The notes beneath the pieces were generated by a model. It saw only the letters and a program-made list of their open reading frames with translations, did no database searches and was not told the DNA's origin. From Octopus vulgaris (lineage: Eukaryota): a stretch of 64,000 nt of DNA. The stretch's first letter is position 1. Each line of letters opens with the position of its first letter. The stretch is taken from the NCBI GenBank assembly GCA_951406725.2, contig OX597830.1:17422001-17486000 (forward strand), read 5' to 3'. Both the position numbers and the translations under genes were made by a program. Positions 7,271-64,000 of this stretch are shown piece after piece.

Positions 7271-7583
7271 GTGGAGGCGCAATGGCCCAGTGGTTAGGGC
7301 AACGGACTCGCGGTCGTAGGATCGCGGTTTTGATTCTCAGACCGGGCATTGTGAGTGTTTATTGAGCGAAAACACCTAAAAGCTCCACGAGGCTCCGGCA
7401 GGGTGTGGTGGCGATCCCTGCTGTACTCTTTCTCCACAACTTTCTCTTAATCTTTTCTTATGTTGGCCTGCTCGCTTAGCCAGTGGGGTGGCGTCATTTG
7501 AAGGCTAAAACAATGCGAAGCGCATTGTGACCAACGATGTGTAGCAATATCTGATAGCCTGCTCGGTCACGGTGATCACAGTG
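7271..7583 (+). mobile_element. SINE family C head with tail type 2
   Basis: tRNA-like head GGAGGCGCAATGGCCCAGTGGTTAGGGC; TSD ATATTGGGAACT at 7258-7269 and 7584-7595. Confidence 0.9.
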
Positions 7584-20857: not shown

Positions 20858-21818
20858 GAATATATCGTGTAATAAGCCGCCCGAAGTACAAAGGCTACAG
20901 CACAGTATTTACTACAAACAAAAAGAATTGAGAAACATTTCCTCAAGGAAAAAATCAAATGTTATATGTATTCCATTAATAAAGGATCGTCGCAGATTAT
21001 TGGTTTGCCAAAATAAGTTTTCTTAGTAAAAGATTGGGAACCATCGGTCTTGGGGTGAATGGTAAGTTTCATTTTTTGTTTCTCTTCTGTGTGTGTGTGT
21101 GTGTGTTTTCATTTTGCGGCTGCTTTTTTTGGAAATGTCTGATGAAAGCGCTTGCATAGTATTACGGCATGGCTAAGTTACTTGATGTTGTTATTGTGCC
21201 AAAGGTGTGGTGCATTCAACGTTGTTGTTGAAGCGGCTAATTAGTACGTATACACGCTGGTTTGCTGTTTGTTTTCTAGTTTAATTTGGAAACAAATGTT
21301 TACTAGTTTCAAGTTTATTCTTTGGTTTATTTTCTTTGATACTTCTTTGTTTAGTTGATTGATGCCGAGTTATATTCCTGTTGTGTGTGGGTCGTGTTTG
21401 CTATTGTCTTCGTGATTCTATAATGGTTGTTATCTCAGATATGTAATTGGATTGTATTTGTTTATGTTGTTTCGTGAGACATATTTTGGCGCATCTATCA
21501 TTATTATGGTGAACATATGTCCATGGTGGTGGTGTTGTTGAAATCTGAAAACAATAATTCTGCTTTTCCTTTTTGTTTTTTTGTTTTGTTTTGGTGGAAC
21601 GCATTCCACTGTGATTAAGACGTTTATAAAAATGATCTTCCTTTTATTGATATGTACGTGATTTGAGACTATAATTATTCGGTGGTCTGAAGAGATTGTT
21701 TGGCGTGTGGTGATAGCATGGTGTCTGTGATGCAGAAAGTCACTCCCGGTTCTTGACTGTTTGATGATGTATGTGTACATGTGATGGCGTGGGTTGCCTA
21801 GGAATTATTGGGAGTTTA

Positions 21819-22206
21819 GTGGAGGCGCAATGGCCCAGTGGTTAGGGCAGCGGACTCGCGGTCATAGGATCGCGGTTTCGATTCCCAGACCGGGCGTTGT
21901 GAGTGTTTATTGAGCGAAAACACCTAAAGCTCCACGAGGCTCCGGCAGGGGATGGTGGTGATCCCTGTTGTACTCTTTCACCACAACTTTCTCTCACTCT
22001 TACTTCCTGTTTCTGTTGTACCTGTATTTCAAAAGGGCCGGCCTTGTCACTCTCTGTGTCACGCTGAATATCCCCGAGAACTACGTTAATGGTACACGTG
22101 TCTGTGGAGTGCTCAGCCACTTACATGTTAATTTCACGAGCAGGCTGTTCCGTTGATTCGGATCAACCGGAACCCTCATCGTCGTAATCGACGGAGTGCT
22201 TCCATC
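21819..22206 (+). mobile_element. SINE C, tail type 1; putative source of the copy at 30.1-30.8 kb
   Basis: TSD ATTGGGAGTTTA at 21807-21818 and 22207-22218. Confidence 0.95.
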
Positions 22207-22374
22207 ATTGGGAGTTTAGCTGTTATTTCTTGTGTTATCTATATTGTTTAAGAACAAAGGATTGTTGAAACATTAATGTTGGCCCTCAGAGTATGGTTCT
22301 TGTGAGAGTGTTAAAGTGTTATAGTTGGGGTAGCTAACATGATATGGCAGGAAGAAGGGTTGATGACGTCAGCA

Positions 22375-22428
<54 letters not shown>

Positions 22429-23145
22429 ACAAAGTGAAGTTGTAAGGTACCGCACGAGTGGAATTATATATAAAAGAAGGTTTGAAAATGCAATTTTAAA
22501 AGATGTTTATTCACTTGACCGGTTTCACTTTTTTTAGAAAAAAGATTGTTAAAAGTAACTTGTAAAAGCTTTGTTGTGTTAGGTACTGGTTGTCCCAAAA
22601 TATTACAATACATATATACATTCTTTGATAATAATAAGAACATGTTAAAAACAATTTACAAGGAAGAATCTTGGGAAAATATAAAAAAGTTCATTAAAAT
22701 ATTGGGCACAAAAAATTACAATACATATAGACATTCTTTGATAATAATAAGAAAATGTTAAAAACAGTTTACAGAAAAATTTGCTTTGAGAATTTATTAA
22801 CAAGTTCATAAAACCTATTAGGATTTCATTCGAAATCATGTTTGTTTGGAAGCATCTATATATATACACAGAATATTATAAGTTCAAAAAGGTAATATTT
22901 TGGTAGTATATATATATATACACAGAAAGAGATATATTTAGTTTATAAAGAATTTGGGATGACCTGTTTCACAATTTAATCGTAAAAGACTATTTTCTAT
23001 TTTAAAGGGACAGTTTAGGAGGTGTGTTTGGGTGGGGGGAAGGAAGAGCAATGTAGAATTGAAAAGAAGTGTTTGCTTCTCTTTCATGGTTGAGTGGTTA
23101 TGGGGATCGGTCTTTAGAGGTCAGAATGGTGTGTGTGTGTGCCTT

Positions 23146-23190
<45 letters not shown>

Positions 23191-23379
23191 GTTTGTGTTT
23201 GTGTGTGTGGGCGTTTTTGATTGGTCCCAAGGTTTATTGTGGTGTATGTAAATGTGTCTGTGTGTGTTTAGTATTTGGTAGGATGGTGTGTGTGTGTGTG
23301 TGCACGTTTGTGTATGTGTGTGTGTGTATGTGTGTGTATATGCGTTTTGTGTGTGTTGGTATTGAGTATACGTTTGTGT

Positions 23380-24150
23380 GTGTGTGTGTATATACGTGGG
23401 TACGGTTTTCTCAAGAGAAGATTTAAATCGTGTTTTTCCAAAATTGTTAAGTTTCCCGTCTTCTATTCTACTCAGATCTTGTCTTAAAGTCTTCACTTTA
23501 TTTTGTAGTCTCCTTTTCCACATTTGCTCTTTTTTAATCTTTCCTTATGGAATATCTAATCTTCTAGTAACTATTACCCTTCCTGCATAGATCAATAAGT
23601 TAGTGCCTCCTACATTTTTAGTATCTATCCTATTGATAACAGAAGCTACTTTCCTAGTCATATTTAGCAGCTTCCTTCTGTTGATGCCTTTTAATGCTGG
23701 CAATCCTTTTCTTACTTCTTTACTCATTACTTCCTGCAACTCATCTAAAATTGTCTGATCTTCCTCACTTAAGTCGCTTAAATCACTAGTGCCAGTTGTC
23801 CCTTCCTTATTAGTAGCGCTATTATTATTTTTTTTCCTTTAGAATCTTCTTTGATTTGAGCTGTATCTCTTATGTTGTTGTTTGTCTTTTCTACCTCTTG
23901 ATCTTTCTTTTCCAGTTCTCTTGTGATCTCTTCCACCTCCAATTTTGTCATCCACTTTCTTCTCCTAACAGCGTTAGCTTCATCTACTAGTCCCTGCTCA
24001 GTCATTTTAAACATACCCTTCTGTACCCAAAGTGTTTACATCCGTTTTCTGTAGTCCCTTCTTCTAAGTTCGCTTTCTAAGTAGCACTGCATCACTATCC
24101 TGTTTTCTTCGGTGGTCCACTTCATCTTCCTTGCTCTACTATCTGCTGAT
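23380..24150 (-). mobile_element. R4/Dong-like LINE ORF N-terminal fragment
   Basis: MKWTTEENRIVMQCY..YRKRM..W..TEQGLVDEANAVRRRKW, LPALK, TNLLIYAG, WKRRLQNKVKTLRQDLSRI. Confidence 0.75.
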
Positions 24151-24328
24151 GCTGTCTTAAGATAACAGCTGTGGTCAGTCTGCATCTTTACTGAACCACT
24201 GCCGAGCGAGAAGCCTTCTCTTAAAGGTCCAACCTCATTTTCGCTGTCACAACCAGTGTTTCTGCGCTAACTCCTGTCTCCCATAAACTGAAGTAAGATG
24301 ACTTTCGTCACCATCGTCATCACTACTA

Positions 24329-24716
24329 GTGGAGGCGCAATGGCCCAGTGGTTAGGGCAGCGGACTCGCGGTCATAGGATCTCGGTTTCAATTCCCAGAC
24401 CGGGCGTTGTGAGTGTTTATTGAGCGAAAACACCTAAAAGCTCCACGAGGCTCCGGTAGGGGATGGTGGTGATCCCTGCTGTACTCTTTCACCACAGCTT
24501 TTTCTCACTCTTACTTCCTGTTTCTGCTGTACCTGTATTTCAAGGGGCCGGCCTTGTCACTCTCTGTGTCACGCTGAATATCCCCGAGAACTACGTTAAG
24601 GGGACACGTGTCTGTGGAGTGCTCAGCCATTTACACGTTAATTTCACGAGCAGGCTGTTCCGTTGATTCGGATCAGCCGGAGCCCTCATCGTCGTTACCG
24701 ACGGAGTGCTTCCATC
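24329..24716 (+). mobile_element. SINE C, tail type 1
   Basis: TSD CATCACTACTA at 24318-24328 and 24718-24728. Confidence 0.95.
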
Positions 24717-24729
24717 CCATCACTACTAT

Positions 24730-25230
24730 TACTTTTCGATAGTTTCAAGAAACTTTCTATTGCGTTACTTGGTGCACTTTTTTGTGCTGATTAGGTGTAT
24801 GCTTCTTTGTTTTTTTCCTGGGGAAAATTGTATTGCATCATTATGTTTTGTTAAGGGGTTTGGTTTGAATCTTTTGCTGTATTAGTTTTGTATTGTGTGT
24901 TGTTTGTGCAGTGCAGGTTGTGTTCGTCCGTTGGGTATCGGGCTTCTATGGCACAAGTTGTGGGCTCCGTTAATTTTATTGGGCATTTACTGTATGAGTT
25001 TATTCCAGGATGAGTTTGGAGTGTTGCATAGTAGTGTGTGCAAATCATAAACCATTTCATAGCTTTCATGGTGATCTGTTCATCGTTCCTTCTTTTTTGG
25101 TTGGTTTTATTACGGGCAAGTCTTTACAGCGTGTACTTTTGACAGATCACCGCCCATGGACATGTGTTGATGTTTCTTTCGTATTCATAAGCTTCATTGG
25201 TGCATAAGCGAGAGACCGAGAAGTAACACC
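24730..25230 (-). mobile_element. Possible decayed PLE 3' remnant
   Basis: Weak NLC motif and a C/A-rich minus strand, similar in character to 21100-21800. Confidence 0.3.
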
Positions 25231-25260
25231 AATGTATATATATACATATATATATATATA

Positions 25261-25350
25261 TATACTAAGTAATTAAGGGTTTAGCAACGAATTGCCTCAC
25301 CAACACACCGAATTTAGAAATAGCAGTCAAAGAGATATAGCTATTCCTTA
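25261..25350 (-). repeat. pLTR-like 3' tail, same family as 55880-55972
   Basis: Reverse complement TTGACTGCTATTTCTAAATTCGGTG...TTGCTAAACCCT matches 55908-55962. Confidence 0.75.
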
Positions 25351-25512
25351 TACATATAGACGACTTGTATAGGTATAGAAATATATGTAATTAAAATTTT
25401 AAAATTTTACTCATAGGGTTGCAGTTTCCGTATAGAGATATTGCAGTCCATGTGCTTACGTTTCTTACATTTTCACGCACGTGTTGTGGCGGCGCATCTG
25501 AATGAAGGTCTC

Positions 25513-25594
<82 letters not shown>

Positions 25595-25788
25595 TAGATA
25601 TATATATATATACTCCACATAAGAAAAACCTCTCAATTTCCTGAGATGGCTTACATTAAAACAGTTTTCTTTCATTGTTTTTGCGGGTTCTTAATTCCTG
25701 CATCGTGATGGTTTCAGATTTGATCTATCTTCCCGGCAGCTCGCTGTCATACGTCAATGCTGTTTCCTTTTCGCTGCGGTATCACCAC

Positions 25789-25827
<39 letters not shown>

Positions 25828-25834
25828 TATTATT

Positions 25835-26252
25835 ATTGAGTAAGAGAGCAGTGCATGCCATCAAAGTGACAATGGGGTAAAATATACGAAGCCAAGTATA
25901 CCCATTACCTTGCAGGTGGGGCCCAGTTAGAATTTCCTTCAAGTTGAGTAGCTCATCCCGCTCAGAAGGTCCCTGAACCAAACACCCACGTTTCCAAAGG
26001 TGAATTATCCAAACCCCAAATAATTCCTCTCAACACATGGCTATGATGCTCCCCACCCACATGGTCAGAGATGCACATATCGTCATGCTCAACTGGTTGA
26101 GGTCAAACAACTGACAAGCAATTCTGTGGTATTGAGCAGAATATTTACTGTATCCTATCTTTTATATCAAGACAAAACAATGTATACGGAAACAGTTCCA
26201 ATCAGTTAAGATCAGAAGCCATGAGAATCACTGCCTGGCACTGCATCAGGGT
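25835..26252 (-). repeat. Unclassified retro-like interspersed repeat with (AAT)n/(GAT)n tail
   Basis: More GC-rich block ending in a trinucleotide tail; no second copy in the window. Confidence 0.35.
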
Positions 26253-26303
26253 TTATCCTCCTCCTCCTCCTCCTCCTCCTCTCCTCCTCCTCATTATTAT
26301 TAA

Positions 26304-26697
26304 GGCGGCGAGCAGGCAGAAACGTTAGCACGCCGGGCGAAATGCTTAGCGGTATTTCGTCTGCCGCTACGTTCTGAGTTGAAATTCCGCCAAAGTCGAC
26401 TTTGCCTTTCATCCTTTCGGGGTCGATTAAATAAGTACCAGTTACGCACTGGGGTCGATATAATCGACTTAATCCGTTTGTCTGTCCTTGTTTGTTCTCT
26501 CTGTGTTTAGCCCCTTGTGGGTAGTAAAGAAATAAGTATTTTGTCCGTCTTCAGTTTCTGAGTTCAAATGCCGCCGAGGGCGACTTTACCTTTTATTCTT
26601 TCGGGGGTCGATAAATTAAGTATCAGTGAAACACTGGGGTCGATGTATCGACTGGTCCCCTCCCCCAAATTTCAGGCCTTGTGCTTTTGTAGAAAGG
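26304..26697 (+). mobile_element. SINE A dimer
   Basis: Full unit, then a headless unit starting at GTATTT near 26536. Confidence 0.9.
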
Positions 26698-26750
<53 letters not shown>

Positions 26751-28257
26751 CATTTTGACTATGAACATAGTGGGTGATTAAACCGGTAGGATGCTAGACA
26801 CGCACGGCTAAATTCTGAGTTCAAATTTCGAGAATGATCGATTTTATATTTCATCCTTCAGAAACTCGTCGAAACAGGTACAAATGAAATATTACATTCA
26901 ATTTAATCAATTCATCCTCTACAAACGAAAAGGCTGATCCCGCGCCCACAATTCTTCTTCTTCCACCTTTGTTTCTTCTTCTTCTTCTTCTTCTTCTTCT
27001 TCTTCTTCTTCTTCTTCTTCTTCTTCTTCTTCTTCTTCTTCTTCTTCTTCTTCTTCTTCTTCTTCTTCTGCTCCTATAAAAAAGACAGAAGGAGTAAGTT
27101 CACGCTATTAATCATGCAAATTTGAGGAAAGAAAAAAGAAAACGAAGTCGAAACAATAAGTTTAATACTAGAAAGAATACAAAACGAAGTGTTGCATGGC
27201 GAGAAAAAGAAAAGGCGAGGAAAAAAAAAAGGGAGGAGAGGAGAGACAAAGGAAAGAAAATGTAGAAGAAATGAATTAGAAGAAGAAAATGCAGATGAGA
27301 AAATGGTGAGAAAGAAAGATATGACATCACCAACGACAAATAACGGCAAAACTAACAAACAAACAAACAAACAAGCAAAAAAGAAACAGAAAGACAATAT
27401 AAATTTGACGAAAGAAGAAAAAATTATTAAAAATAGGAGAGCAAAATATAGAAAAATAAAATGGCAGCATTAACGGCAACAAGAACAAGAAAGAGAAGAA
27501 GACAGGAAGGCTAATTGAGGTTTCATATTGAATGATGTAAAATATTTATTTGTCAATTCTGACAGCTTGGCCTTTTTAGTATGATAAATTAGAGAATAGG
27601 TGATATTGGCAGACATAATAGAGCCACCAACGCCTGCGTCGCTGCCGCCTCTCTAATATGTTAACTCTCGTTCGACGAATCATCAGCGACAAAGCCTTTA
27701 CGAGGCCGCTCGATTTGTTAGAAATAACGACCGAATCTCAATGGAATTATAGGCTTTAGTCGTATTAAAGGACATTGGTTAATCTGGTCGTGTTTCCTTA
27801 CACACAAAAGCCTAAAACAAAACAAAACAAAACAAAAGCAGTGGGATGGTCATGGTGGGAATATCATTGGTTATAGGTCTGCTTGTTCAGGGCTTACATG
27901 AGACTAAACAACAGCAGCAGAGGCTGTTGCAAGAACAGCAACAGCAACAACAACAATGTTGTATTATCTGTTATGAAATAACGCCCGCACATTGCACCAA
28001 ACTGTCTTAAAATGGAAGAGGTATATTGGAAATGTAATCTTAGGATCTACAGGGTTTGAGATGAAAATACTCTATGGTCATGTACGGATTGTCTATTATC
28101 AAAAGCCTGCTCACTCAGCGTCGACTAAATAACAACAACAACAACAACAACGACGACGACGACTACAACTACAACTTCAACACTTCAACAATAAAACCTT
28201 TCGCCCACTTCAAAGTGAGTGAGTTCCTACACGATTGATCGCACTGCAAATTTCCCT

Positions 28258-28306
<49 letters not shown>

Positions 28307-28369
28307 ATGGATGTAATTATATATATGTATATATAAAAGTATATATAAAAATGGTTTAACAAACAAAAA

Positions 28370-30211
28370 GTGTGACTACCTAACCCATTTTGATTGCAAG
28401 ACTATTATCTACTTCTACGGTTTCCCCAAAATTAAGAAACTATTAAGAATGCATGTAAAGAACCAACTTCAAGTTGTATAAATATACACTCTCCCAACGT
28501 CAAATTCAGATCAATCGTAGCAAGCTCGAACTGTGAAACAGCAACTTTTTAGACATATTACTGAAACCTACTTTAAAAAAACCTACCAAGTCTTGTAAGG
28601 GACGACCCAGACCACGTCCTAAATCCATAAACAATGATATCACTATTGTATCTTTTGATGTGGTAAACCTCTATACCACAATCCCACACCAATATGGACT
28701 AGAGGCAATGAAATTTTGGCCTGAGAAATAACCTCATGAAATTCCAGACAGAATCGAAAAGAGTTTCATCACTGAAGGATTAAAGTTTAACCTCGAAAAC
28801 AACTTTTTTGACTTCGATGACAATATTTACAATTATCTGGGACTGCGATGGCGACAAAAGTTGCTCCGACTTACGCAAATATAATTATGACATGCATAGA
28901 GGTCCAAATGTATGAAGAATCTAAATGGCTTGAACTTCCACAAATATCTACTAGAAAACTGGAAAGGTTATTTAGATGACTGCCTAATCCTATGGACACA
29001 CACATTTGAACATATTATACATTTCAAAAATCTAATCAACAGCATAAACAATAATATTAACTTTACCATGGAATACAGTAAAACTCAAGTACTATTCCTA
29101 AATACTAATCATCAAAAACAAAACAAGCATTGAAATAGATATTCACTAGAAACAAATTCTAAACAATACTTACTGTTCTCCTCATGACATCCCAAAGACA
29201 CGAAGGATAATATTCCCTTTAATATAGCAAGAAGAATCTGCACAGTTGTCTCAAACCCTGAAACTCGCAATAAAAGACTCTAGGAATTAAAACAAGTACT
29301 ACTTAAAAGACAATATCCATTAATGTTAATGGACAACGGAATAGAACGTGCCAAAGCGATAAATATCGAAGAACAACGAAAAACGAAAAACGCTCCAGAT
29401 ACATTTCATACTCTACCCTTTATTACAACACACAGCCCAAGAAACACAGAAGTTTACAATATTATCCACCAGAACATCTCACTACTAAAACAAGACCCAA
29501 GAATGAAACAAACATTCATAATGCACAAAATAATCAAAAGCAAAAGGTAATCAAAGTCCCTCCAAAAATTCCTCATAAGCGCTGAATTACCTTCCACAAT
29601 TCCTATACCAACAGTAAAAATATGTGGCCGCCCCAATTGTGGAATCTGTATCAACCTTATTGAAGACACAACATACAAATTCAAATCAGGACAGACTTAC
29701 CGTAAAAAATCCCTTTACATGTTCTTCAAGGAATTTAATATACGCTATCAAATGTTAAGGATGTAATGAAGATTACATAGGTTAAAGCTTACTCTAAGAA
29801 ATAGACTGACCATTCAGCGACAAATACAAAACCCCAGTACTAGATAGATTCCACTGAGTGGTCACATAGGCATGTGCAAAAAATAAGTCCTCCAAATTTC
29901 AGGTCTTCCCAATCTACCTATGTTCAGAAAATACCGCAGATGAAGCACGGGTAAACAAAGAAAATATTTTCATACAAAAGTACAAACCAAGACTTAACAA
30001 ATTTTAACACAAGTAAATACACAAATAGCTATTCACACACAAGACTCATCCTGCCACTTATCATGAGGAACCTGGTTGGATGGAAGCACTCCGTCGGTTA
30101 CGACGACGAGGGCTCCGGTTGATCCGAATCAACGGAACAGCCTGCTCGTGAAATTAAAACCTTCTTTTATATATAATTCCACTCGTGCGGTACCTTACAA
30201 CTTCACTTTGT

Positions 30212-30259
<48 letters not shown>

Positions 30260-31330
30260 TGCTGACGTCATCAACCCTTCTTCCTGCCATATCATGTTAG
30301 CTACCCCAACTATAACACTTTAACACTCTCACAAGAACCATACTCTGAGGGCCAACATTAATGTTTCAACAATCCTTTGTTCTTAAACAATATAGATAAC
30401 ACAAGAAATAACAGCTAAACTCCCAATGATGGAAGCACTCCGTCGATTACGACGATGAGGGTTCCGGTTGATCCGAATCAACGGAACAGCCTGCTCGTGA
30501 AATTAACATGTAAGTGGCTGAGCACTCCACAGACACGTGTACCATTAACGTAGTTCTCGGGGATATTCAGCGTGACACAGAGAGTGACAAGGCCGGCCCT
30601 TTTGAAATACAGGTACCACAGAAACAGGAAGTATGAGTGAGAGAAAGTTGTGGTGAAAGAGTACAACAGGGATCACCACCATCCCCTGCCGGAGCCTCGT
30701 GGAGCTTTAGGTGTTTTCGCTCAATAAACACTCACAACGCCCGGTCTGGGAATCGAAACCGCGATCCTATGACCGCGAGTCCGCTGCCCTAACCACTGGG
30801 CCATTGCGCCTCCACTCATGAGGAACCTACACAGCTAACAACCTAAACGTTAGCCACTAAACTACATAGAAACGACTCCTGTTCACTTTCCCACCAGACA
30901 AATTAAATTACGGACGTAATGGGAAACGTACAAAAGTTCATTCTTTACAAACACTTGACAGAAAACATTCAGAGCATTGATTGTTTGGACATGTTCATTT
31001 AACCGCGCCAGTCTTAACTTACGACGCCAGACATTGTCACCTCATACTAACTCACGGACGTAGCGGGGAACCTACAAAAATTTCTATGACCAGTAATGTG
31101 ACTATCCTCTACCATTCAAATCCTATTAAAAACATCGACTAATTTGAGCCATGAACGCCTTATGAAAATAGGGCAAGCTTCAAACACTAGTCAGAAGCAA
31201 GACAGGTGCGACATAAGCCACGTCTTTTTATTTGAACTTTTTGAAAATCAGTGTAAACTGTGAAACTGGTTAAAGCTTTAAATATATTAACAAAAATATT
31301 TCAACTATTCTCAGTGTATTTTCAACTTCT
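28370..31330 (+). mobile_element. Decayed Penelope-like element (RT + GIY-YIG endonuclease pseudogene)
   Basis: SFDVVNLYTTIP, GTAMATKVAPTYANI, GYLDD, HPKDTKDNIPFNIARRI, CGRPNCGIC, CSSRNLIYAIKC..C.EDYIG, ENIFIQKYKPRLN; many stops and frameshifts; degenerate hammerhead near 31237-31275. Confidence 0.9.
30074..30815 (-). mobile_element. Composite SINE C insertion: full SINE + copied flank + second SINE 3' end
   Basis: TSD TCATGAGGAACCT at 30061-30073 and 30816-30828; 30157-30815 is the reverse complement of 21819-22483. Confidence 0.92.
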
Positions 31331-31899
31331 ATTTTTCCTATATTTCTATCTGTGTGGAATAAAATAACTTTCATATATATATATATATAATAAAGCATAA
31401 GATACATTTTTATTTCCCAAAATGAAACAAAACTAACAGTAAAATGGAAAATAATGTTTATTTTTTGTATACATCCACTTCATTTATATATGAAAAGTTT
31501 TTTCCTACTTTTGCTAATTGCAAAGTTTTTGTTCAGATCCTCAGTATGACACCACGAGTTCTTCGAAGTTATATTTCCGATCATATAAACCACATACAAA
31601 AATTATTTCAGCAAGTTTAAATTTCTTTCATGCCATAAAACATTTATCCTTTCTGTGGTATCCACTTCCCTCTATGCCCCCAGCACGTGCTTATTTTCCT
31701 TAATGGTTAATCCAGCGTTGGATTTAGCCATTAGTACGGTATCTGATATCAATGCTAACATGTGCACCATTAAAGATATCTATCAACATGGTTTCAAACA
31801 TAACGCTGAACAAGGTGAGAACAAGGACACAACGGTATTTCGTTCTGTTGGAGTCAGAGTATGGGTCTGATATATCTCTGATGTCTTGAACACTATCAA

Positions 31900-48844: not shown

Positions 48845-48916
48845 GTCAGTTTAGCTTAATGGTAAAGCACTTGATCGGTAATCACAGGGATGTGAGTTCG
48901 AGTCTCATGGCTGGCC
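48845..48916 (+). pseudogene. tRNA-like cloverleaf (anticodon position GGT, Thr-like), probably a repeat head rather than a functional tRNA
   Basis: Acceptor GTCAGTT/GGCTGGC, D arm GCTT/AAGC, T arm GTGAG-TTCGAGT-CTCAT; irregular anticodon arm. Confidence 0.6.
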
Positions 48917-51787: not shown

Positions 51788-52007
51788 ACCGTGATCACCG
51801 TGACCGATCAGGCTATCAGATGTTGCTACACATCGCTGGTCACAATGCAATTCGCATTGTTTTAACCTTCAAATGACGCCACCCCGCTGGTTAAGCGAGC
51901 AAGCCAACAGAAGAAAGAGTGAGAGAATGTTGTGCCGGAGCCTCGTGGAGCTTTAGGTGTTTTCGCTCAATAAACACTCACAACGCCCGGTCTGGGAATC
52001 GAAACCG

Positions 52008-52010
<3 letters not shown>
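51788..52010 (-). mobile_element. SINE C with tail type 2, deleted
   Basis: Reverse complement matches 7320-7580 with an internal deletion. Confidence 0.85.
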
Positions 52011-52069
<59 letters not shown>

Positions 52070-59395: not shown

Positions 59396-59443
59396 CACAT
59401 GTATGTATGTATGTATCTATCTATCTATCCATCCATAGGATAG

Positions 59444-59768
59444 GAACACTCCGTCGGTTACGACGACGAGGGTCCCAGCTGATACGATCAACAGAACAGC
59501 TTTCTCGTGAAATTAGCGTGCAAGAGACTGAGTAATCCACAGAAACGTGAACCCCTAACGTAATTCTCTGGGAGATTCAGCGTGACACAGAGTGTGACAA
59601 GGCTGGCCCTTTGAAATACAGGTACAACTCCTTTTTGCCAGCTGAGTGGACTGGAGCAATGTGAAATAAAGTGTCTTGCTCAAGGACATAACGCGTCGCC
59701 AGGAATTGAGCTCACGACCTTACAATCGTCAGTCGAATGCCCTAACCACTAAACCACGCGCCTTCACT
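59444..59768 (-). mobile_element. SINE D: different tRNA/CORE-like head joined to tail type 1
   Basis: Head GGCGCGTGGTTTAGTGGTTAGGGC..GTCCTTGAGCAAGACAC; tail GTACCTGTATTTCAAAGGG...GACGGAGTG shared with SINE C. Confidence 0.85.
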
Positions 59769-63719: not shown

Positions 63720-64000
63720 GATGAACATCGCCCTTTTCAAGCCTAGCCAGGTTCACGGGCCCGGTTTCCCGGTTTCTGTGGCGTATGTATTTCCTCCAGC
63801 TGGACGGGACGCCAGTCCATCGCAGCGTTACTCAAGAAACAGGAAGAAAGAGAGTGAGAGAAAGTTGTGGCGAAAGAGTACAACAGGGGTCACCCCGCCC
63901 TGCCTTTTAGGTGTTTTCGCTCAGTAAACACACCCAACGCCCGGTCTGGCAATCGAAACCACGATCCTCCGACCGCGTATCAGCTGCCCTAACGACTGGG
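63720..64000 (-). mobile_element. SINE C head with tail type 3 (runs off the window)
   Basis: Family C head, then CTGCGATGGACTGGCGTCCCGTCCAG, resembling the V-SINE conserved domain. Confidence 0.85.

Follow-up and report, generated by a model that had tools for sequence, protein, structure and literature searches.

A 742-bp insert (30074-30815, minus strand) in the 64-kb stretch of Octopus vulgaris DNA analysed here (the window) joins a copy of a neighbouring SINE (A) and its 3' flank to the 3' end of another SINE copy (B), the whole enclosed by a single 13-bp target duplication. Judged from the sequence, this two-part copy most likely arose by one retrotransposition, in which the reverse transcriptase would have switched from the RNA of SINE B to the Pol III run-on RNA of the neighbouring SINE. 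Break repair is a serious rival to such an RNA jump. The features concerned are listed in Table 1. The insert lies in a degenerate repeat that we take, from its protein motifs, to be Penelope-like; Pfam gave no family above the cut-off for it. The same search named neither this repeat nor a broken frame at 23400-24318, and gave one weak match below the cut-off. As it stands, the insert is a single neutral-looking event; the repeat around it is dead, and no sign of function was seen.

Table 1. Features of the source locus and of the insert, in window positions.
Feature	Position	Strand	Remarks
Left TSD of source SINE A	21807..21818	+	12 nt; 13 counting the G at 21819
Source SINE A, full length, tRNA-like head	21819..22206	+	388 nt; very high copy family
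Copied 3' flank	22207..22483	+	277 nt; right TSD (22207-22219), single-copy DNA, (TA)n and the end of another repeat; without TTTT
T2AT3CT2 motif	22223..22231	+	resembles leaky non-canonical Pol III terminators (PMC3141230)
Second leaky-terminator-like motif, T2GT3	22244	+	same likeness (PMC3141230)
Flank part shared with another high-copy repeat	22438..22483	+	30157-30202 on the copy
First TTTT downstream of SINE A	22494..22497	+	predicted Pol III terminator; outside the copy
Target-site duplication, 3' side of insert	30061..30073	+	13 nt; within contig 30011-30101 of run X1
3' end of different SINE copy (B)	30074..30157	-	family positions 310-388 and 5-nt tail
Flank/tail junction	30156..30159	-	T4 run, 1-nt overlap
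Copy of source flank, including source right TSD	30157..30427	-	from alignment
Copy of SINE A, modal family 5' end	30428..30815	-	positions of copy-only substitutions: 30634, 30617
Target-site duplication, 5' side of insert	30816..30828	+	13 nt
Degenerate multi-copy repeat hosting the insert	28300..31150 (limits approximate)	+	from translation; multi-copy depth

Alignment of 30815-30157 (minus strand) with 21819-22483 (plus strand) gave exactly two substitutions, both in the copy (SINE position 182, T>A; position 199, T>G), and a (TA)n tract of 40 nt in the copy against 46 nt in the source. Similarity was far beyond chance (in blastn, the SINE had an E value of 0.0 and the flank one of 2e-134), and the right TSD of the source (22207-22219) recurred inside the copy at 30427 on the minus strand. 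Within the window, the 13-mer TCATGAGGAACCT occurs just twice, at 30061-30073 and at 30816-30828. The initial annotation had described a reverse-complement copy of the source with its right TSD, differing at about two positions and in (TA)n length and lying with the rest of the insert inside one TSD, and all of this was borne out. The copy of SINE A begins at 30815, the commonest family start in four of four runs, and shares its orientation with the tail of B, which is intact and lies within the same TSD.

The second SINE end (30157-30074, 84 nt) comprises SINE positions 310-388 and a 5-nt tail, and is not what comes after the flank at the source locus. Its presence had been annotated correctly; its differences from the source number three in 79 places (354, 360 and 370) and not two as annotated. 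None of the three other window copies with a 3' end matched all letters of B, and an origin of B from another copy in the window was rejected. Flank and tail meet with a 1-nt overlap inside a T4 run, at the end of one of just four T3 runs in the 277 nt. Folding predictions were made for tail, junction region and head, and none set position 310 apart (z of -1.5, -1.5, -0.3 and -2.6), and a metagenome scan with the SINE tail gave no matches.

The SINE is a short, non-coding, TSD-flanked element of 388 nt with four near full-length copies in the window (about 60 per Mb) and 84,000-143,000 matching contigs per run. A tRNA-derived SINE typically has its 3' tail in common with a partner LINE, and named octopus families include OK, OR1 and OR2. 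Stretches like an A box and a B box, set against the consensus, are visible in 21831-21885, where ARAGORN and Rfam called no tRNA. SINEs make up 11.6% of the O. vulgaris genome (PMC13282606).

Variants shared by source and copy had been annotated as private, which did not hold. The copy at 52011 likewise carries CTAAAGC, that at 64000 carries CCCTGTTG, and in four runs the letter at position 150 made up to 14-37% of the family depth. Source and copy agree at 46, 134, 150 and 184 in variants that are common in the family; their joint chance is about 3% if independent and higher if linked. The rare A alleles begin at position 272, and on its 5' side the source carries common family alleles only. 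Both copy-only changes are located 5' of this position (chance 19%), and there were no substitutions across the 393 nt from 272 through the flank end. The common variants and the placing of the copy-only changes weaken the case for an RNA jump, since changes 5' of 272 would also fit an older SINE whose 5' part had been kept.

Such an older SINE is what break repair supposes, a reading that we regard as a real but lesser possibility. A plain SINE B would have inserted first, and a later break would have been repaired via the inverted SINE A and its flank and then end-joined to the 3' piece of B. Homologous repair completed by end-joining is known in mammalian cells; acting ectopically, it gives the same anatomy if a plain SINE preceded. 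On this reading, a plain allele should exist, captures should occur on either side, and their ends should bear no relation to terminators. Without any RNA, it accounts for the TSD, for the exact start at the 5' end and for the proximity of the donor, and the copy-only changes in the 5' half, the substitution-free 393 nt and the common A alleles of the 5' half are all in its favour. However, break repair would require B to agree with A at 46, 134, 150 and 184 despite the 3/79 differences in the tail. Nucleotides 1-106 of the copy are identical to A, whereas three of three other window copies differ there at 2-5 places, which favours a jump between RNAs; at the 3/79 rate, identity over 106 nt would have a 1.7% chance.

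The 665 nt copied contain no TTTT, and the copied end lies 10 nt before the first one on the source strand (22494-22497), in agreement with the distance annotated. Among ordinary 277-nt windows, 2251 of 10193 were without T4. End points with T4-free sequence behind them and a T4 within 14 nt made up 254 of 20380 sampled (1.2%), or 254 of the 4492 T4-free ones, in a test picked only after the pattern had been seen. The final 46 nt of the copied flank are a piece of another high-copy repeat, whose other copies continue past the junction as the source does; therefore, the source retains the ancestral letters at the junction, and a former T4 at this place in the source was rejected. These letters, the modal 5' start, the end 10 nt before the first T4 and the join in a T run favour the RNA jump, as do the one 13-bp TSD, the same orientation of both parts and the intact tail on B. 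Break repair leaves the end before the T4 and the join at a T3 run unexplained. Two further points weaken the RNA jump: the copy ends 10 nt short of the T4 and not at it, and motifs 17 and 38 nt behind the end of SINE A resemble leaky non-canonical Pol III terminators, described from human data (PMC3141230), so that many transcripts might end earlier. RNA-editing marks were rejected as proof of an RNA template, the changes being T>A and T>G and not A>G.

In the proposed route, a LINE-encoded enzyme would nick the target, and target-primed reverse transcription would start on SINE B RNA. At the neighbouring locus, Pol III would pass through the flank to the T4 at 22494, SINE A lacking a terminator of its own. 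After 84 nt, the cDNA end would shift onto this run-on RNA, at a U run close to its 3' terminus; the RNA would then be copied as far as its first base, and second-strand synthesis would close the 13-bp duplication. Speculatively, the missing 10 nt may have been lost by 3' trimming or may represent a stretch still held by the polymerase. The switch would have occurred where the insertion took place, with the RNA not yet far from its own gene, because a departed RNA would land within 8 kb with a chance of about 1 in 10^5, a rough estimate for which we assume a genome of gigabase size.

Two other routes to a composite insert were weighed. Ligation before insertion, in the manner of U6/L1, is improbable: a U-ending run-on RNA would be joined to a cut SINE 3' piece and the joined RNA retrotransposed. 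U6/L1 joins have 4-6 T and no homology (PMC6789731), to which the T4 run with its 1-nt overlap comes close, but nothing would lead a ready chimeric RNA to a site 8 kb from its source, the join lies away from the predicted RNA end, and no cyclic-phosphate end is known for this run-on RNA. A DNA template is very improbable; in this case, the cDNA end of a truncated SINE would have moved to nearby DNA, from which 659 nt of the neighbour would have been copied. For L1 sites, 22 cases of templated insertion are described, but the templates are typically shorter than 250 bp and lie within 15 bp of the insertion (10.1101/2024.08.27.596794), and it would be unexplained why copying ended exactly at the first SINE base.

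The target/tail and SINE/flank junctions were matched exactly in one public run, the target/tail junction by a 91-nt piece with no differences in X1, which may be the source sample. X1 was the sole run of four to cover the target, which it showed filled with tail B; X3, X9 and X11 had zero depth at 30014-30067, and the allele readout rests on X1. No empty or plain-SINE allele, of the kind that the initial annotation had suggested looking for, was seen in this run. Among the contigs listed, none spanned the flank/tail junction or the whole insert, a point that would fit misassembly, the least likely reading of all and hardly credible given the unique 13-bp TSD, the two substitutions and (TA)n length by which the arms differ, and the exact 91-nt match in X1.

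A 59-nt flank/tail contig would rank second by length, yet was absent from those listed for X1; as 80% of the run was read and the contigs were graph-cleaned, the missing contig weighs little. With the target filled, its absence slightly weakens the RNA jump and is in favour of break repair. A SINE variant having T4 at the junction position was also present in X1, as one contig, and would provide repair with a 4-nt microhomology. This contig may stem from a plain allele of B, or from some other copy altogether; it is a single contig from a family of about 60 near full-length copies per Mb and need not be B. Depth in X1 was 58.7 for the flank and 24.5 for the target, an about twofold ratio that fits a homozygous source and, against break repair, two flank copies on one haplotype equally well. 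Flank depth was present in one of four runs (X1, with a trace in X4), and a hole in depth proves nothing. Mapping of 29400-31350 (90%) was swamped by SINE copies, so that joints and loose ends were uninformative on alleles.

The insert resembles Alu/LINE-1 and U6/LINE-1 chimeras, in which a full-length Pol III RNA copy on the 5' side and a 5'-truncated retroelement end on the 3' side share one orientation and one TSD, with a T run at the join (PMC13174262, PMC6789731, PMC4476161). In the octopus insert, the 5' part is complete from the modal family start and ends in the T4 join, 10 nt before the first genomic T4, and the 3' part is 5'-truncated with a tail. Unlike the chimeras as described in the available text, its two parts come from one SINE family and its 5' part carries 277 nt of its own flank from a neighbouring source locus; the available accounts of Alu/LINE-1 chimeras give no flanks or local sources for the Alu parts. 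One account holds 452 Alu/L1 chimeras within one TSD, in which most Alu parts are sense and of full length (PMC13174262). Two-RNA insertions in human cells (PMC11702581), internal switches onto U5 RNA (PMC4476161) and one co-insertion of a pre-mRNA transcribed near the L1 site (PMC10191854) are also described. The last was a somatic event with a Pol II pre-mRNA and a LINE primer, whereas the octopus insert is germline, with a predicted Pol III RNA and a SINE primer. Precedents exist for each step, in the Alu/L1 chimeras or the one local pre-mRNA capture; the full combination (SINE, flank and second SINE end from a local source) was not found in the literature search. The RNA jump had been proposed in the initial annotation: the anatomy fits it best and precedents exist, but the argument from private variants is much weaker than claimed. 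The alternative given there, break repair, is the serious rival named above.

The insert had also been called a 3' transduction. As in L1 and SVA 3' transduction, an element and its own downstream flank were relocated within one TSD and the parent is identifiable, and to this extent the term applies; unlike in those cases, the priming tail derives from another copy. For Alu, the available text of one search gives zero confirmed transductions among 118,489 full-length AluY and cites two single cases by others; segments containing another Alu were left out, so that a composite like the octopus insert would be filtered out (10.1101/2024.04.29.591526).

SINE-driven transduction seemed rare or absent in that systematic primate search, and SINE source loci are hard to identify. 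If the RNA reading is true, the insert would name a transcribed source locus and mark the end of a Pol III run-on RNA, and templates would come from the chromatin neighbourhood during insertion. Capture side, distance to T4 and distance to source would serve as genome-wide discriminators between an RNA jump and DNA repair. A tentative and for now doubtful extension is that SINEs of the octopus type have a distinct route for moving the DNA beside them, the inserting reverse transcriptase grabbing run-on Pol III RNA at a neighbouring locus. If so, tail-primed SINEs, unable to transduce 3' flanks alone, would make local duplications, and such inserts would form a recurrent class that records germ-line-transcribed SINE loci and Pol III stop sites.

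The longest inverted repeat in the window pairs 21818-22422 with 30212-30816. On realignment of the source (SINE A with its 3' flank, 21819-22483, plus strand) against 30815-30157 on the minus strand, the coordinates of the initial annotation proved correct, as did its estimate of about two differing positions and a (TA)n length difference: over the full alignment the only differences are two substitutions and a 6-nt change in (TA)n length, a divergence of 2 in 618 compared sites (0.3%). SINE A has its own target-site duplication (TSD) of 12-13 nt, the right copy of which recurs within the insert. On the 3' side of the copied flank lie SINE family positions 310-388 and a 5-nt tail, together forming tail B, the 3' end of a different SINE copy, which differs from SINE A at 354, 360 and 370. 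Flank and tail B join with a one-T overlap inside a run of four T. None of the three other window copies with a 3' end matches tail B, ruling these out as its origin. Everything had been said to sit inside one TSD, and the entire 742-nt insert is indeed bounded by two copies of a 13-mer without other occurrence in the window. The composite insert is real and young.

Features of the insert, its source and their surroundings
Feature	Position	Strand	Remarks
SINE A (source)	21819-22206	+
Copied flank, at source	22207-22483
Insert	30074-30815	-
Tail B	30074-30157	-
TSD of insert	30061-30073 and 30816-30828		13 nt
End of high-copy repeat	22438-22560 (source), 30157-30202 (copy)		adjoins (TA)n
Diverged direct repeat	22596-22660 and 22709-22813	+	~65-105 nt; directly downstream of source
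Broken reading frame	23400-24318	-	perhaps first gene of a LINE
Full SINE copy	24329-24716		11-nt TSD; just upstream of broken frame
Degenerate multi-copy element	28300-31150	+	hosts insert near its end; reverse-transcriptase- and GIY-YIG-like motifs
Related SINEs, partial likeness to family	59436-59628 (-), 7271-7454 (+), 51906-52011 (-), 63835-64000 (-)
Lone tRNA-Thr(GGT)	48845-48916	+	gene or pseudogene

The window is eukaryotic, with many microsatellites and repeats. We take the host element to be Penelope-like; it gave no Pfam family above the cut-off, and the broken reading frame gave no Pfam match. The stretch holding the TSD may resemble a hammerhead core, with no match in Rfam. The four related SINEs resemble the family over just one part, either the 3' half or the head, and diverge in the remainder; they represent modular SINE families.

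Twenty-four public sequencing runs were listed, the best containing 0.52 of the words, and contigs were compared from X1-X4 and, in a second comparison, from X1, X3, X9 and X11 (six runs in all). The SINE family is very large (84,000-143,000 contigs placed per run). Mid-flank is single-copy and is covered by one X1 contig (30264-30454, 0 differences, depth 58.7); cover was absent in X2 and X3 and a trace in X4, such gaps being uninformative. Another X1 contig (30011-30101, 0 differences, depth 24.5) spans the target, the TSD and tail B, and 15 non-matching letters at its outer end possibly reflect another haplotype. Depth at the target copy, 30014-30067, was zero in X3, X9 and X11, where gaps are equally uninformative. 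No X1 contig across the flank/tail B junction was among those listed, with 80% of the run read; such a contig, of about 59 nt, would have ranked among the longest listed. Because the contigs are also cleaned by SPAdes-like rules, according to the available part of the Logan preprint (10.1101/2024.07.30.605881), this absence carries little weight. As X1 contigs support two of the four junctions, target/tail B and SINE/flank (the latter also present at the source), misassembly of the composite is unlikely. The flank (22207-22378) and the target (30014-30067) were each covered in only one of four runs; this region may be missing from many haplotypes, or the remaining runs may be other species.

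The insert starts at the family's usual first base (30815, the commonest family start in 4/4 runs), and its copied flank ends, as had been claimed, 10 nt short of the first TTTT (T4, the predicted Pol III terminator) in the source sequence. This T4 lies 288 nt 3' of SINE A; for other window copies the distances are 16, 94, 139 and 333 nt. Ordinary 277-nt stretches are TTTT-free in 2251/10193 cases (72/593 on the same strand nearby), and 254 of 20380 sampled end points are both T4-free behind and <=14 nt from a T4. The join sits at the end of one of the four T3 runs in the flank. In our judgement the T4 and T3-run tests, which were devised after the pattern was seen, favour an RNA template with a likelihood ratio of ~5-10. 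Counted against an RNA template are T2AT3CT2 (22223) and T2GT3 (22244) in the flank; the accessible part of one study reports that T2AT3 partly terminates human Pol III (PMC3141230). The SINE A body itself contains T3AT2 (21906), so termination at this type of motif has to be leaky at this locus. The flank end in the copy is part of another high-copy repeat, which reaches a depth of ~30,000 in X1 and 53,000 in X3 and runs on into several distinct sequences. Other copies of this repeat continue like the source, so the source's junction letters are ancestral, and a source that once carried a T4 at the join was rejected.

We consider it probable that a one-step jump between RNAs made the insert: reverse transcription on SINE B RNA would have switched, at the insertion site, onto Pol III run-on RNA of the neighbouring SINE A. 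The insert's anatomy, its source, the join and the ends are established, whereas we infer which enzyme and transcript took part, where that transcript ended and in what order events ran. Among RNA-based explanations, the closeness of source and target decides in favour of switching where the insert landed and against RNAs ligated beforehand, which is very improbable; copying from DNA during insertion would leave the exact 5' start unexplained and is scarcely credible.

The target may instead have held an older plain SINE that underwent repair, a possibility we think less likely than the RNA jump. X1 also yields a contig of a SINE variant that has four T at position 310; were this B, the join would have 4-nt microhomology, favouring repair, but given the family size it could be any copy. 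Variants common to source and copy had been called private, whereas several are common in family depth. Taking as share the part of run depth without the majority's other letter (contig depth being a rough measure), and among 40 of the 131 rows, shares were 32-40% at position 46, 47-66% at 134, 14-37% at 150, 47-77% at 184, 3-5% at 272 and 16-18% at 308. The copy-only letters are rare in the family by run contig depth (182, <=6%; 199, <=2%), and both are situated on the 5' side of the first rare A allele, compatible with a mosaic of an older SINE to ~200 followed by A. Such a mosaic requires agreement at four common sites, ~3% if these are independent and higher should they define a subfamily. 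The RNA jump requires two new or allelic changes, both in the copy and both within 271 nt of its 5' end (19% for location alone). These two demands about cancel.

A SINE with its own flank and a second SINE end from a neighbouring source was not found in the literature searched, mainly non-subscription main texts. The accessible portions of published work describe 452 cases of full-length Alu 5' of truncated L1 in one TSD (PMC13174262), U6/L1 joins with 4-6 T formed by RNA ligation (PMC6789731), internal switches onto U5 (PMC4476161), one case of local pre-mRNA co-insertion (PMC10191854) and, for molluscs, the proposal that SINEs exchange modules by template switching (PMC4758252). In the available part of another source, confirmed Alu transductions number 0 among 118,489 AluY, segments containing another Alu being left out (10.1101/2024.04.29.591526). 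The insert resembles classical 3' transduction in effect, yet it is not classical. A single event in this window, it is most likely a retro-chimera that works in the same way as the Alu/L1 chimeras.
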